From NCBI RefSeq assembly GCF_002854065.1, contig NZ_CP024147.1: a stretch of DNA of 64,000 nt, one strand, 5' to 3'. This document shows, piece by piece, positions 1 to 4,268 of this stretch. Within the stretch, counting starts at the first letter, position 1. Every line of letters starts with the position of its first letter. This DNA is from Escherichia coli. Lineage in GTDB: Bacteria > Pseudomonadota > Gammaproteobacteria > Enterobacterales > Enterobacteriaceae. The translations under genes and the position numbers were made by a program. The notes below the pieces were generated by a model that worked only from the letters and a program-made list of their open reading frames with translations, searched no databases and had not been told where the DNA came from.

Positions 1-409
1 AGCGCCCATCAGTGCCGAAATTCGCAAGGTACATCAGTATCTGACCTTTTCGGTAAATACCCCGGCACAGCTGGCAATTGCGGATATGCTACGTGCAGAA
101 CCTGAGCATTATCTTGCGTTACCGGACTTTTATCGCCAGAAGCGCGATATTCTGGTGAACGCCTTAAGTGAGAGTCGGCTGGAGATTTTACCGTGCGAAG
201 GCACATACTTTTTGCTGGTGGATTACAGCGCCGTATCTACCCTGGATGATGTTGAGTTTTGCCAGTGGCTGACGCAGGAGCACGGCGTAGCGGCGATTCC
301 GCTATCGGTGTTTTGCGCCGATCCCTTCCCACATAAACTGATTCGTCTCTGTTTTGCCAAGAAGGAATCGACGTTGCTGGCAGCAGCTGAACGCCTGCGC
401 CAGCTTTAG
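1..409 (+). CDS. ybdL: PLP-dependent aminotransferase, C-terminal part only (5' end lies outside the window)
   Basis: Frame is open from the window start to the stop at 407-409; the translated C-terminus matches E. coli YbdL from memory. Confidence 0.85.
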   Translation, partial: APISAEIRKVHQYLTFSVNTPAQLAIADMLRAEPEHYLALPDFYRQKRDILVNALSESRLEILPCEGTYFLLVDYSAVSTLDDVEFCQWLTQEHGVAAIPLSVFCADPFPHKLIRLCFAKKESTLLAAAERLRQL

Positions 410-1039
410 CTATTTAACCGTCCAGGCGCGGGAATATTGACGGTCGGCAAACAACTCTTGCAGGCCGTTAATTTGCTTCAGGCGCAGCACTTCGTCGCTG
501 TCCATTCCCAGCTCTTTGCCAATTTTATTATCGTCCCATCCCAACTGGCTAAGTTCACGGACGATTTCCGACATGGCGGTGATTTGATGGCGTCCACGAG
601 CGCGATTATGACGAATAGTCGCGGCGATGCGTTGATTACGCGTACCTTCCAGACAGGTCACCGGCAAATAACCTTTTAAGCGTAATTGTAATGATGATGA
701 GCCTTTACCAATTTCATGGCGGTGAAAACCATCCACGATTTCCAGAGCATTTTTATCCGTATGCGTGACCACAATGGGTTGGGTAAAACCATCTATTTCA
801 ATGGATTTTTGCAGCAGTTTCTTCTCTGGCGGTGCCACATTATTGGGATTGTAATCATTTGGCACGAGCTGGCTATTTTTCACCCACAGAACGCAATCCA
901 CTGGCTCTTCACGAAAGGGGCTAACCTGATGGATCGCCATGCGGATTTCATTAATCGCTTTGATGCGATCATCTTCCGGCAAGCTGGCGAGAAATTGCGT
1001 TAAATCCTGCGTTAATCGTTGTTGCATAGTATCCCCCAT
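410..1039 (-). CDS. ybdM: ParB/Srx-like nuclease-domain protein (IbrB-like)
   Basis: 209-aa ORF containing the motif EIVDGFHRHEIGK (DGQHR/ParB-Srx-like); its start overlaps the ybdN stop by 28 nt. Confidence 0.9.
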   Translation of the reverse strand: MGDTMQQRLTQDLTQFLASLPEDDRIKAINEIRMAIHQVSPFREEPVDCVLWVKNSQLVPNDYNPNNVAPPEKKLLQKSIEIDGFTQPIVVTHTDKNALEIVDGFHRHEIGKGSSSLQLRLKGYLPVTCLEGTRNQRIAATIRHNRARGRHQITAMSEIVRELSQLGWDDNKIGKELGMDSDEVLRLKQINGLQELFADRQYSRAWTVK

Positions 1040-2232
1040 TCCTGACGTTTTCCTTTTATCCGTTCGTTATAACGCTGATAGTTCTTCGCTTTCGTAGGAC
1101 TAAATGATAATGCCCGACACCAGTAATCGTTATTGAGTAAAACTTTGCATATCCGCCGCCAGGAGGGGATATCTTTCGCGCCAATGTCCCCTTGCTGGGT
1201 TTGTGGAACCTCGATGCCTTTTTTCTGATACCAGTGCAAATAAATGGCGATTTTATTGCGGTAATGCTCAGCTGTTTTTTCCGGCATGCTATTGAGCAGC
1301 AATAATGCATATTCTTGCCAGTCTAAATGTTCTGGCTTGAGGATTTTCCGATGCCCATAGAAATGATTGTCATGTCCGGCGTAAATGCCGCCACTTTTTA
1401 CCCCGCTGACTCGTGCGCACATAGCAGCCCAGCGATCCGGTTCGATAACGTGATAGAGCCATAATCCTTGTCGTTGCTCCGGGCCAAAAGGTTCGCAAAT
1501 TCGCATATGACGCAGAGGAACGCCTGCCTGATACATCAGGTTATACAGTGGGTTGCAGAGACTTTGATGATTTGCATACCAGGTCCAGATATCAGCCACT
1601 TTCCAGTCGTAAATGGGATAAATGTACCAGCTATGACCGCCTGGTGCGGCCGTAGTCCAGGGTTTATCGTCGGCAAAACGTTGTTTATTTAAACTGGCGA
1701 TGGCGACAAAACGGTTGTAGGACTCATCCGCACGGATGCCGATCATCATCGCCGCCGGACGTTTTTGTGAAAACCATTCGGCAAACTCACGTACAAATTG
1801 TTCGAAGGTCATGCCTGGCTGGTAAAAGGAGAAAAAGTCAGGATCGGTTATCGCATCTTGCGGGGGCTGACGCACCCATTCGACATCAGGTTCCCAGCAC
1901 TGCCATTCGGGTTGGTATTGTGAAAGGGAATTTTGCGTCGTAAGCGGGAGCGCAACCCAGTAAAACTCTTCGATGACATCGGTGTACAACTCGTGCAGGG
2001 ACTGAACATAATTAATGGTGCAAGAGAATTGCGCCTCCCAGTCGATAAACAAAACGCAGATTTTTTTGCCCATTTGTCGGGCAAGTTCGGCTGTCAGATG
2101 CAGCATTAAACCAGAGTCTTTGCCGCCAGAAAATGAGACACAAACGCGGGGTAGGGTGTTGAGTGTCCAGGTAATACGCTCTCGTGCAGCTTCCAGAATA
2201 TTGAGCGGAAGAGGAATTTTATAAATAGACAT
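1012..2232 (-). CDS. ybdN: PAPS-reductase-like PP-loop ATP pyrophosphatase family protein (IbrA-like)
   Basis: 406-aa ORF with the PP-loop motif SFSGGKDS near the N-terminus; length matches K-12 YbdN. Confidence 0.9.
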   Translation of the reverse strand: MSIYKIPLPLNILEAARERITWTLNTLPRVCVSFSGGKDSGLMLHLTAELARQMGKKICVLFIDWEAQFSCTINYVQSLHELYTDVIEEFYWVALPLTTQNSLSQYQPEWQCWEPDVEWVRQPPQDAITDPDFFSFYQPGMTFEQFVREFAEWFSQKRPAAMMIGIRADESYNRFVAIASLNKQRFADDKPWTTAAPGGHSWYIYPIYDWKVADIWTWYANHQSLCNPLYNLMYQAGVPLRHMRICEPFGPEQRQGLWLYHVIEPDRWAAMCARVSGVKSGGIYAGHDNHFYGHRKILKPEHLDWQEYALLLLNSMPEKTAEHYRNKIAIYLHWYQKKGIEVPQTQQGDIGAKDIPSWRRICKVLLNNDYWCRALSFSPTKAKNYQRYNERIKGKRQEWGILCNND

Positions 2233-2710
2233 CTGAAGACGCTCTCTGAACGTTACAGGGTGATCAGTGAGATAAGACTGTTAATTATAAAGTAAACACT
2301 GAAAAGCAGAGTGTTTTATTTTTCATTCGCGCTGTGAATAAATAGGTGAAAGTTATAGTAGCTGTCTGAGGTTATATATCAAAAACACTCATTTAGACGG
2401 TCAATGAATCGTGAGAACACCAGATTGTTTAAAGAAGATTTATTATAGGAAATGTAAAGCTTTATTGAAGGTAACGGATGTTCTAGTTTTATCTCTTTTA
2501 AATTAAGAAAGTCACGGTGGGAGTTATAAAGTTCATAGGGGACTATTCCCAGTAAATCTGTAACTGCAATGCTATTAATGATTGTCAGCAAAGAGGAACC
2601 ACGAAATGAAATTTTGCGATTCATAAATCTCTCGTCTATTTCCATTTGAATATCATCAACCCCTGCTGATTTAGATATTAATTGGGTGAACTCTTCTGCC
2701 ATAATTTGTT

Positions 2711-2719: not shown

Positions 2720-2774
2720 GGTGATGCTGCCAACTTACTGATTTAGTGTATGATGGTGTTTTTGAGGTGCTCCA

Positions 2775-3050
2775 GTGGCTTCTGTTTCTATCAGCTGTCC
2801 CTCCTGTTCAGCTACTGACGGGGTGGTGCGTAACGGCAAAAGCACTGCCGGACATCAGCGCTATCTCTGCTCTCACTGCCGTAAAACATGGCAACTGCAG
2901 TTCACTTACACCGCTTCTCAACCCGGTACGCACCAGAAAATCATTGATATGGCCATGAATGGCGTTGGATGCCGGGCAACCGCCCGCATTATGGGCGTTG
3001 GCCTCAACACGATTTTCCGCCATTTAAAAAACTCAGGCCGCAGTCGGTAA
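2775..3050 (+). CDS. insA: IS1 InsA (transposition inhibitor / N-terminal part of the transposase)
   Basis: 91-aa ORF beginning [30 protein letters not shown], recognised as IS1 InsA. Confidence 0.95.
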
Positions 3051-3472
3051 CCTCGCGCATACAGCCGGGCAGTGACGTCATCGTCTGCGCGGAAATGGAC
3101 GAACAGTGGGGATACGTCGGGGCTAAATCGCGCCAGCGCTGGCTGTTTTACGCGTATGACAGGCTCCGGAAGACGGTTGTTGCGCACGTATTCGGTGAAC
3201 GCACTATGGCGACGCTGGGGCGTCTTATGAGCCTGCTGTCACCCTTTGACGTGGTGATATGGATGACGGATGGCTGGCCGCTGTATGAATCCCGCCTGAA
3301 GGGAAAGCTGCACGTAATCAGCAAGCGATATACGCAGCGAATTGAGCGGCATAACCTGAATCTGAGGCAGCACCTGGCACGGCTGGGACGGAAGTCGCTG
3401 TCGTTCTCAAAATCGGTGGAGCTGCATGACAAAGTCATCGGGCATTATCTGAACATAAAACACTATCAATAA
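2969..3472 (+). CDS. insB: IS1 InsB reading frame (expressed as an InsAB' fusion by -1 frameshift)
   Basis: 167-aa ORF in the -1 frame relative to insA, recognised as IS1 InsB. Confidence 0.9.
3026..3032 (+). promoter_or_regulatory. IS1 A6C slippery site for programmed -1 ribosomal frameshifting
   Basis: AAAAAAC heptamer within the insA/insB overlap. Confidence 0.7.
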
Positions 3473-3487
3473 GTTGGAGTCATTACC

Positions 3488-3496
3488 CATAAGTGC
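3488..3496. repeat. IS1 target-site duplication, right copy (CATAAGTGC)
   Basis: The same 9-mer occurs immediately outside both IS1 ends. Confidence 0.9.
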
Positions 3497-4268
3497 TATT
3501 GTCAGTAATTCGTGGATGCCTATTACTACAAATTAGAGTATTGCGAATCGTATGCAATGGCATGCAAATGACGGAACGGCTGATCACTGGCATTTGGGTG
3601 ATCACCAGATCGGCTTTGCGGTGAACCAACAGTTCTTCAGCATTCTCTGCTGACATGAGGATATCATGGCACTCAATCTCGACAGAGGAATCTTGTCGTA
3701 GGCAGCGGATCAGCATACTATTATTAGAGCAAGAAATGAGCTGAGGGCCGTGAATAATAAAGTTTTTCTTTAGTTCGGACTTATTGACTATATTAATTGT
3801 TTGTTCAAGGCCTCTGAGATTTTTCTCAAGATGGTGATGCAGATTTAACCCTGTTGTCGTCGGCGCGATACCTTTTCCTGAGCGAATGAATAAAGGGTCA
3901 TTAAATTGCGCACGTAAGCGTTGTAACGACTGGCTCACGGCTGATGGGGTGATATATAGTGATTCAGCAGCTTTGCTAATGCTTAAATGCTGGTAAATAC
4001 ACTCAAATATGACAAGAAGATTTAAGTCGAACTTTTTCAAGTCGTAGAGATTGGTCATACACTACTCCGGTTATATTTTTCTTCCATGATATATTCACTT
4101 AATCAATGTTTTTTTTGCGTATATATTTTTATTGGTTATGTTTTTTTGCTTAACTCAGGATTAAGTTTTTCTAAAATAGCACAGCCACTTAGGGCAGAGC
4201 GAGCAATTCATGCTTTTTTAGGATGGTTGAAAAGCAGGGATATAGTTCAACCATCCATGAATTACCTT

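Follow-up and report, generated by a model that had tools for sequence, protein, structure and literature searches.

What reaction do the products of ybdN and ybdM catalyze? These overlapping genes lie near the left end of a 64,000-nucleotide stretch of Escherichia coli DNA in contig NZ_CP024147.1 (referred to here as the window), and since both the genes and their family are already annotated, the pair itself is known and it is the reaction that remains the question. Both open reading frames (ORFs) are intact and are on the minus strand. ybdN (1012–2232) codes for a 406-residue IbrA-type protein with a PP-loop ATP pyrophosphatase domain of the phosphoadenosine phosphosulfate (PAPS) reductase clade followed by DUF3440, and ybdM (410–1039) codes for a 209-residue IbrB-type protein with a ParB/Srx N-terminal domain and a helix-turn-helix (HTH) region. 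A first-pass annotation of this DNA took the pair for a minimal system of the DndB/DndC type; we confirm the observation and find the interpretation partly supported. New here are the presence of an IbrB-type gene directly beside the IbrA-type gene in 80 of 80 loci, the co-occurrence of the two in phages, eight invariant YbdN residues, SNF2, GNAT, and small-protein accessories, and an association with virulence plasmids. The reading that we favor, though tentatively, is that a DNA-bound complex of the two enzymes uses ATP or another nucleoside triphosphate, by adenylyl transfer, to alter DNA or the proteins bound to it such that silenced foreign genes are expressed.

Judged from their sequences, ybdN and ybdM are chromosomal paralogues of IbrA/IbrB. 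YbdN carries PAPS_reduct and DUF3440 and has an adjacent ParB-like partner encoded on the same strand, the combination that defines the family, and in IbrA/IbrB, as in ybdNM, the PAPS_reduct plus DUF3440 gene is followed by an overlapping ParB-like gene. Accessory pairs annotated as IbrA/IbrB are 57–60% identical to YbdN, in agreement with the homology proposed in the first-pass annotation, and AFDB50 neighbors of YbdN are named immunoglobulin-binding regulator or IbrA. For a complete E. coli genome without a mismatch over 410–2400, RefSeq places ybdM and ybdN at the same coordinates and names their products 'IbrB-like domain-containing protein' and 'phosphoadenosine phosphosulfate reductase', respectively. 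The sole phenotype on record for the family is gene activation: IbrAB (ECOR-9) enhances expression of Eib, according to the account of Sandt 2002 given in PMC7649339. As had been supposed, the literature searched yielded no biochemical work on YbdN, YbdM, IbrA, or IbrB; a 2022 paper terms YbdM 'completely uncharacterized' (PMC8764527), and in phage papers IbrA and IbrB are listed without an assigned function.

The end of ybdN overlaps the beginning of ybdM by 28 nt (1012–1039), as first noted, or by 16 nt if Met5 is the true ybdM start. There are two candidate starts, Met1 and Met5 (1025–1039), and the Met5 ATG (1027–1025) is preceded by GGGGA, a better-spaced Shine-Dalgarno sequence than that of Met1; the resulting 16-nt overlap is a value typical of IbrAB-type pairs. 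The genes overlap whichever start is used. Eleven Enterobacteriaceae loci (that of strain 100416 and 10 that the genome scan described below yielded) have a spacing of -28 nt, against -16, -4, or -8 nt elsewhere, and overlap or tight abutment of IbrA-type and IbrB-type genes is kept across phyla, which supports the earlier proposal that the two are co-transcribed and translationally coupled.

Pairing of the two genes is obligate. A scan of 100,044 species genomes yielded 80 loci from many phyla and one Heimdallarchaeota metagenome-assembled genome, and in all 80 the genes are directly adjacent on the same strand, usually overlapping or abutting; the IbrB-type gene follows the IbrA-type gene in 78 and precedes it in two (L025, L031). 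Searches of the phage collection gave 224 records for one protein and 226 for the other, distributed over hosts in the same way (Flavobacterium 90, Mycobacterium 60, Streptococcus 21, Arthrobacter 12, and others), PHROG matches are to phrog_2302, phrog_15645, and phrog_2159 (E 1e-69 to 1e-86), and the family extends to phages of six or more bacterial phyla and to an archaeal virus. YbdN is matched by 1684 clusters of a representative library (50% identity; E up to 0.001), and many of its closest non-enterobacterial relatives come from viral contigs. Natural IbrA-IbrB fusions were sought among long homologues and rejected, as P0123, P0177, P0191, P0256, and P0235 bear other extensions, not ParB. 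A 505-residue Shigella flexneri entry in AFDB (A0A6N3R9C3, 'ParB-like nuclease domain protein') shares 96% identity with YbdN across 334 aligned columns and may be a YbdN-YbdM fusion generated by a frameshift.

Within E. coli, ybdNM is a core operon present in 5399 of 5426 complete genomes. Orthologues are 70–84% identical in Citrobacter, Salmonella, Enterobacter, Klebsiella, and others, homologues reach E 1e-290, and the order ahpF-ahpC-dsbG-ybdO-ybdN-ybdM-ybdL is kept in the Enterobacteriaceae. Ratios of non-synonymous to synonymous change (dN/dS) are ~0.05–0.15 relative to Citrobacter and Enterobacter, with dS saturated. The operon is a species-core one, vertically inherited across the Enterobacteriaceae under purifying selection; of the association with defense islands or prophages raised earlier, the occurrence of the pair in phages and on islands and plasmids stands, whereas ybdNM itself is not a defense-island gene. 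We also observed that allelic divergence over 410–2400 is unusually high for a core locus, with 1784 of the 5426 E. coli genomes at 90–95% identity and lacking the upstream intergenic region, and the dS of ybdM between E. coli and E. albertii is ~1.2; recombination or allele replacement may account for this.

YbdN belongs to the PAPS-reductase-like PP-loop ATPases (PF01507 clade), with a Rossmann-like alpha/beta fold and an N-terminal PP-loop of the form SGGxDS. Pfam places PAPS_reduct at residues 30–234 (E 1.7e-13) and DUF3440 at residues 237–383 (E 5e-23), the latter forming a family-specific helical C-terminal domain (residues 237–406; window 1015–1524, minus strand). The motif SFSGGKDS reported earlier is present at residues 33–40 (2113–2136, minus strand). 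From 59 diverse homologues AlphaFold2 gives a confident model (predicted local distance difference test, pLDDT, 91.3; predicted template modeling score, pTM, 0.89), and the nearest-fold figures are 15.8 for the PAPS domain of human FAD synthase, about 14–15.5 for adenosine phosphosulfate (APS)/PAPS reductases, 14.7 for CysD, 12.2 for TilS, 11.4 for TtuA, and 8.9 for QueC, all over ~170 residues only. FAD synthase, CysD, and the APS/PAPS reductases all make or break an AMP-phosphate or AMP-sulfate anhydride; YbdN differs from them in having the full SGGKDS loop, the additional DUF3440, and no reductase cysteine.

The active site is strictly conserved. Among 159 homologues from phages, bacteria, and an archaeon, D64, E66, R167, E170, S171, D209, D214, and R244 are invariant, and the PP-loop reads SGGKDS in 151 of 158. 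A census of cysteines in the alignments shows none to be universal, so that the shared chemistry is very likely nucleotide chemistry at the ATP alpha-phosphate, with no need of a cysteine or an Fe-S cluster. The best-conserved cysteine, C94, is present in 121 of 158 homologues (85% of the 59-sequence alignment), and C246, C362, and C372 are at 53–58% with no consistent pattern. Residue 94 is alanine in every enterobacterial copy, whether it is of the ybdNM or of the IbrAB type, as well as in 13 copies from viruses, which points to a possible clade-specific change in chemistry or in sulfur dependence. This residue (window 1951–1953) is at the end of strand beta-3, adjoining the PP-loop.

YbdM has a ParB fold and, with its G-x-x-R motif at the box II position, belongs to the ParB/Srx superfamily. 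The single-sequence Pfam match to ParB_N is weak (residues 54–109, E 3.2e-4), and a 17-homologue profile hits the Noc, ParB, and Spo0J N-domains with E of 2e-6 to 1e-3; the best solved-structure matches of the IbrB profile are Noc and ParB. The motif DGFHR (residues 103–107; window 719–733, minus strand), earlier recognized as being of the ParB/Srx type, aligns with the GERR of ParB box II in a comparison with Noc, and D103, G104, and R107 are invariant in the family. The family is unusually rigid in an alignment of 112 sequences, the conserved blocks being NDYNPN..APPE, DGFHR, GYLPV, the almost invariant TIRHNRARG.H, and the HTH LGMD.DEVLRLKQI.GL; TIRHNRARGRH (residues 141–151; window 587–619, minus strand) is the most conserved stretch of the IbrB family, at 90% or more. 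The protein ends ~20 residues beyond the HTH, and therefore no C-terminal dimerization domain of the ParB type is evident. The ParB-family CTP switches (ParB/Spo0J, Noc, KorB, VirB) resemble YbdM in having an N-terminal ParB fold with box I/II equivalents followed by an HTH, whereas the YbdM family has DGFHR in place of GERRxR, the unique TIRHNRARG.H, no evident C-terminal dimerization domain, and an obligatory enzyme partner.

Outside the Enterobacteriaceae the pair is commonly part of a larger locus. At least one accessory gene is found within three genes of the pair in 100 of 141 such loci (71%) and in none of 22 enterobacterial loci, and ybdNM is thus the minimal form. One accessory is an SNF2-type ATPase of ~415 residues (Pfam SNF2-rel_dom and Helicase_C; matching phrog_62), directly upstream of IbrA-IbrB in ~40 loci (e.g. 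L128_9 in L128 and L133_11 in L133; also L003, L005, L028, L029, L048, and others), including those of Lactobacillus phage AQ113 and Flavobacterium phage FCL-2. A GNAT-fold acyltransferase occurs either alone or at the C-terminus of the SNF2 protein (Acetyltransf_1, E 5.9e-9), and appears by eye, though not by profile, to be fused to the C-terminus of the IbrA homologue P0177. A third is a Cys/His-rich protein of ~130 residues, 'X', with the motif ...WPISCEHNL...AWIGHAACC..., located between IbrB and IbrA (L099_3, L110, L111, L134) or fused to the C-terminus of IbrB in 47 proteins (the long IbrB proteins of L108, L113–L115, L120, L122, and L025). The fourth, c21, is also ~130 residues and appears by eye to be fused to the IbrA N-terminus in P0123. 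Pfam, PHROG, and PADLOC gave no informative match for protein X, c21, c6, or c10, and the association with SNF2 and GNAT proteins, a four-component combination, is not described in the literature searched. The extended loci resemble the Dpd 7-deazaguanine system, which likewise has a PP-loop enzyme (QueC), a ParB-like NTPase (DpdB, an ATPase), and an SNF2-type helicase (DpdE).

Viral contigs place the pair among genes of DNA metabolism, with neighbors including YqaJ-like exonucleases, helicases, a C5-methyltransferase, and primases; C5-methyltransferases are present in eight viral loci. Of seven large ORFs downstream of the pair in the viral contigs examined, three are large terminases and one is portal-like, and in phages Laroye, Gadjet, and XCL1123 the pair is just upstream of the packaging genes. 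In actinophages it adjoins a methyltransferase and extra ParB-like genes upstream of the terminase, and in Streptococcus phage CHPC1230 and Lactobacillus phage AQ113 it lies between the lysis and early genes. A role as small terminase was considered and rejected, as Arthrobacter phage Laroye has its own small terminase adjoining the pair, and in other phages the pair is in replication or early regions.

Enterobacteria also carry accessory copies that travel with acquired virulence loci and regulators. A distant DNA search across E. coli hit 8088 places in 5420 genomes, indicating that many strains have extra IbrAB-type pairs, 118 of which are on plasmids, and a plasmid collection contains 855 carriers (Klebsiella 323, Escherichia 204, Ralstonia 129, Shigella 123). 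On an O157:H7 island (L167) a PerC-family regulator is immediately downstream of the pair; on E. coli plasmid pSCU-111-1 (L168) the pair is flanked by insertion sequences and adjoins cdt genes; on the K. pneumoniae IncFIB/HI1B virulence plasmid p53357-227.9 (L169) it is between fecIA and iroBCD; and on S. boydii pINV (L170) it adjoins fae fimbrial genes, an AraC regulator, and osp effectors of the type III secretion system. Several Shigella pINV records keep only IbrAB fragments. ibrB and the adjacent perC gene are induced on host-cell contact (PMC7649339). The IbrAB-type copies share with YbdN the alanine at position 94 and the lack of accessory genes, and differ in being accessory and located on islands and virulence plasmids, whereas ybdNM is chromosomal, core to the species, and under the control of CitR.

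CitR (YbdO) is a LysR-type repressor that binds upstream of citR-ybdNM and represses ybdNM, and its deletion raises ybdN by 5.5 log2 and ybdM by 2.5 log2, the entire sulfate-assimilation (cys) regulon by 2–2.8 log2, and flagellar genes also (PMC9068703). In this strain the gene is split near codon 192 by a 768 bp IS1 (2720–3487, plus strand), recognized by its inverted repeats and InsA/InsB ORFs and flanked by a perfect 9-bp target-site duplication, CATAAGTGC, at 2711–2719 and 3488–3496, as the first-pass annotation had suggested in describing a LysR gene hit by an insertion sequence. The C-terminal fragment, annotated citR, is an ORF at 2379–2719 and the N-terminal fragment a 191-residue ORF with the LysR HTH at 3488–4058, both on the minus strand. 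Given the phenotype of citR deletion, ybdNM is probably de-repressed and constitutively expressed here. The ybdO-ybdN intergenic region (2233–2378, minus strand) is AT-rich, contains a hairpin (AAACACT-N9-AGTGTTT), and is the likely location of the ybdN promoter and operator; a conserved operator or parS-like site 5′ of ybdN was considered and rejected, as the intergenic DNA is not kept between genera. An AT-rich setting had been noted for the pair, and this holds for the ybdO/intergenic stretch, which alone falls to 34–39% GC, and not for ybdN and ybdM themselves (45–50%). YbdM protein is increased 29-fold, without explanation, in E. coli with plasmid pUUH239.2 carrying blaCTX-M-15, and its overexpression costs 10% of growth rate (PMC8764527).

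These observations constrain the mechanism because the pairing is obligate and translationally coupled, because the PP-loop site is invariant and the nearest folds all handle AMP-phosphate or AMP-sulfate anhydrides, and because the partner joins a nucleotide-binding ParB/Srx domain to an HTH, the frequent accessories being a double-stranded DNA translocase and an acyltransferase. In the model that we propose, YbdM would bind DNA through its HTH region and a nucleotide in a ParB/Srx pocket formed by DGFHR and TIRHNRARG, and YbdN would be its obligatory catalytic partner in a two-protein complex, its PP-loop using ATP to transfer AMP onto a target. The target may be DNA itself, modified at a phosphate of the backbone or at an oxygen of a base, or something DNA-bound. 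The output in enterobacteria would be the switching on of silenced, horizontally acquired genes, as shown genetically for IbrAB and the prophage eib genes, with CitR keeping the operon off in E. coli; in phages and other bacteria the same core is often extended by the SNF2-type translocase and the GNAT acyltransferase and is located in the DNA-metabolism module. Several points weigh against this model. Neither the present analysis nor the literature searched gives direct evidence for DNA as substrate or for any modification, and no recognizable DNA-binding fold was found in DUF3440. YbdM has no evident C-terminal dimerization domain, which ParB clamps need, and no conserved palindrome or parS-like site was found upstream of ybdN in the intergenic DNA of 10 Enterobacteriaceae. 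The eib phenotype, demonstrated for IbrAB alone, is that of a paralogue and not of ybdNM itself; the rise of the cys regulon on citR deletion could point to a metabolic role; and the replacement of C94 by alanine in all enterobacterial copies means that the chemistry may differ between clades.

The proposed model has to be weighed against five other explanations, two of which also place the pair on DNA. YbdM/IbrB could be a VirB-like switch that binds a site, spreads, and counters H-NS, with YbdN a scaffold, a sensor, or a supplier of the nucleotide ligand and with no covalent change to DNA. VirB is a CTP-dependent anti-silencer, and VirB and KorB show that proteins with a ParB fold can regulate transcription. 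Such a transcription-factor pair would account for a ParB N-domain joined to an HTH in YbdM, for the activation of eib by IbrAB as reported at second hand, for the regulators and virulence loci adjoining the accessory copies, and for control of the operon by CitR, citR being itself reported as H-NS-regulated (PMC9068703). We nevertheless consider it unlikely, as a catalytic set invariant over 159 YbdN sequences is hard to square with a non-catalytic role, many hosts of the pair have no H-NS, the SNF2 and GNAT accessories hint at an enzyme that works on a polymer, and no dimerization domain is evident in YbdM. Alternatively, the pair could be a phage-derived hypermodification or anti-restriction module that marks the element's own DNA against host restriction or CRISPR, of which the E. 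coli copy is a domesticated or idle remnant. The position of the pair between lysis and early genes in virulent Streptococcus and Lactobacillus phages, its actinophage neighbors, the C5-methyltransferases of the eight viral loci, and the ~1684 clusters with their many viral close relatives are all consistent with this, and a GNAT partner recalls base acylation of the Mom type. No modified base is reported for any carrier phage in the literature found, however, and a core operon that is vertically inherited under purifying selection and silenced is at odds with self-marking, which would need constitutive expression; this explanation therefore seems distinctly unlikely.

The other three explanations involve sulfur, metabolites, or defense. 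A minimal DndB/DndC-type phosphorothioation system borrowing IscS and working without DndD/E, as the first-pass annotation would have it, draws on a real likeness: DndB/DndC (SspE/SspD) also place a PP-loop ATPase of the PAPS-reductase clade beside a ParB/Srx-superfamily protein with DGxHR, YbdN has partial weak matches to DndC (E 5e-5 in NCBIfam; E 1.9e-5 in PADLOC), and Cys94 is kept in most non-enterobacterial members. However, against the DndC model TIGR03183 YbdN scores 22.4 bits, over residues 145–223 only, where the cut-off is 290.4, and it has DUF3440 in place of the DndC C-terminal region. DndC combines the PP-loop with a three-cysteine 4Fe-4S center and a cysteine dyad, and DndD and DndE make up the obligatory Dnd core (PMC10853773). 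Neither the three-cysteine site nor the dyad was found in the alignments of the YbdN family, and E. coli YbdN is without Cys94 too; no DndC is among the best 50 AFDB50 neighbors of YbdN; YbdM matched no DndB model in NCBIfam, only nucleoid_noc (E 1.8e-4), and has DGFHR rather than DGQHR; and DndA, DndD, DndE, SspB, SspC, and cysteine desulfurase are absent from the window neighbors and from the recurrent neighbors of 165 loci, the lack of DndA/D/E partners having been remarked on at the outset. We thus reject DndC, SspD, or Dnd-system membership on curated models, PADLOC, cysteines, and neighbors alike; the likeness is at the level of paired superfamilies, and phosphorothioation by the pair is very improbable. 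It is equally hard to credit that YbdN is a PAPS/APS reductase or a nucleotidyl-transferase acting on a metabolite and YbdM a ParB/Srx-fold kinase or sulfiredoxin-like enzyme doubling as a regulator. The RefSeq name of YbdN, its nearest folds (FAD synthase, CysD, and APS reductases), weak matches of the IbrB profile to SbnI (E 7.5e-3) and free serine kinase (E 0.2), the thiol-redox neighbors dsbG-ahpCF, and the induction of the cys regulon when ybdNM is de-repressed (PMC9068703) point this way. Yet CysH models score well below their cut-offs (TIGR02057, 34.6 bits against 254; NF002537, 33.3 against 154) and there is no conserved C-terminal catalytic cysteine of the ECGLH type in the YbdN family, so that CysH identity is rejected and the RefSeq name not supported, and the setting of the pair, with phages, SNF2 proteins, and an HTH, speaks for nucleic acid as the target. 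In sulfiredoxin the GGCHR motif holds the catalytic cysteine, where YbdM has phenylalanine; a sulfiredoxin/peroxiredoxin link drawn from the ahpCF/dsbG neighbors is rejected for want of that cysteine in YbdM and because the synteny is confined to the Enterobacteriaceae. An anti-phage defense system could be read from the accessory copies on islands and plasmids flanked by insertion sequences, from the small islands in varied chromosomal contexts that the module forms in other phyla, and from the weak resemblance of the SNF2 ATPase to the helicase domains of ZorD, DpdE, and DrmD. Profile searches, proposed earlier as a check, found PAPS_reduct, DUF3440, and ParB_N, whereas the 5027 defense models of PADLOC 2.0 gave only weak partial matches to YbdN and YbdM (E 2e-5 or weaker), none of them convincing. 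One of these, to BrxP of type 4 BREX, has E 2.9e-4 over 74 residues with no BREX genes at the locus, and is rejected; BrxP is a PAPS reductase with DUF4007 and a Cys-rich region, found alongside PglZ, BrxC, and BrxL (PMC12839542). As neither a nuclease nor any other effector accompanies the pair consistently, and with the pair being core in E. coli and abundant in virulent phages themselves, a defense role has the slightest probability.

A broader formulation of the model of adenylyl transfer on DNA is possible, although on balance we regard it as doubtful. IbrAB-type pairs including ybdNM may be the catalytic core of a widespread, unrecognized system for DNA-directed modification or chromatin remodeling, composed of a PP-loop adenylyl-transferase and a ParB/Srx nucleotide switch, to which an SNF2 translocase and a GNAT or small Cys/His protein can be added. 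Phages, virulence plasmids, and the chromosomes of enterobacteria would employ it to render foreign DNA transcribable, or to hide it from host silencing and restriction, through a novel covalent modification of DNA or of a nucleoid protein.

As for the surroundings, the window opens with the end of ybdL (86–409, plus strand), and beyond ybdO/citR the ORF listing includes dsbG, ahpC, ahpF, and uspG. Among complete E. coli genomes the best full-length match reaches just 98.7% identity, suggesting that the lineage is Shigella-like or otherwise unusual.

ybdN and ybdM are among a shrinking set of conserved E. coli genes with clear enzymatic domains and no known reaction, and the only functional clue is genetic, a paralogous pair that turns on prophage surface-protein genes. 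Should they prove to be no more than a regulator with a vestigial enzyme fold, the finding would be an ordinary one. If instead the pair is an ATP-driven enzyme that acts on DNA or nucleoid proteins and unlocks silenced foreign genes, it would represent a new mechanism in the control of virulence genes and in phage-host conflict, and would also explain a recurrent and ignored passenger on virulence plasmids, the 855 plasmid carriers of the family including hypervirulence plasmids of Klebsiella as well as Shigella pINV.

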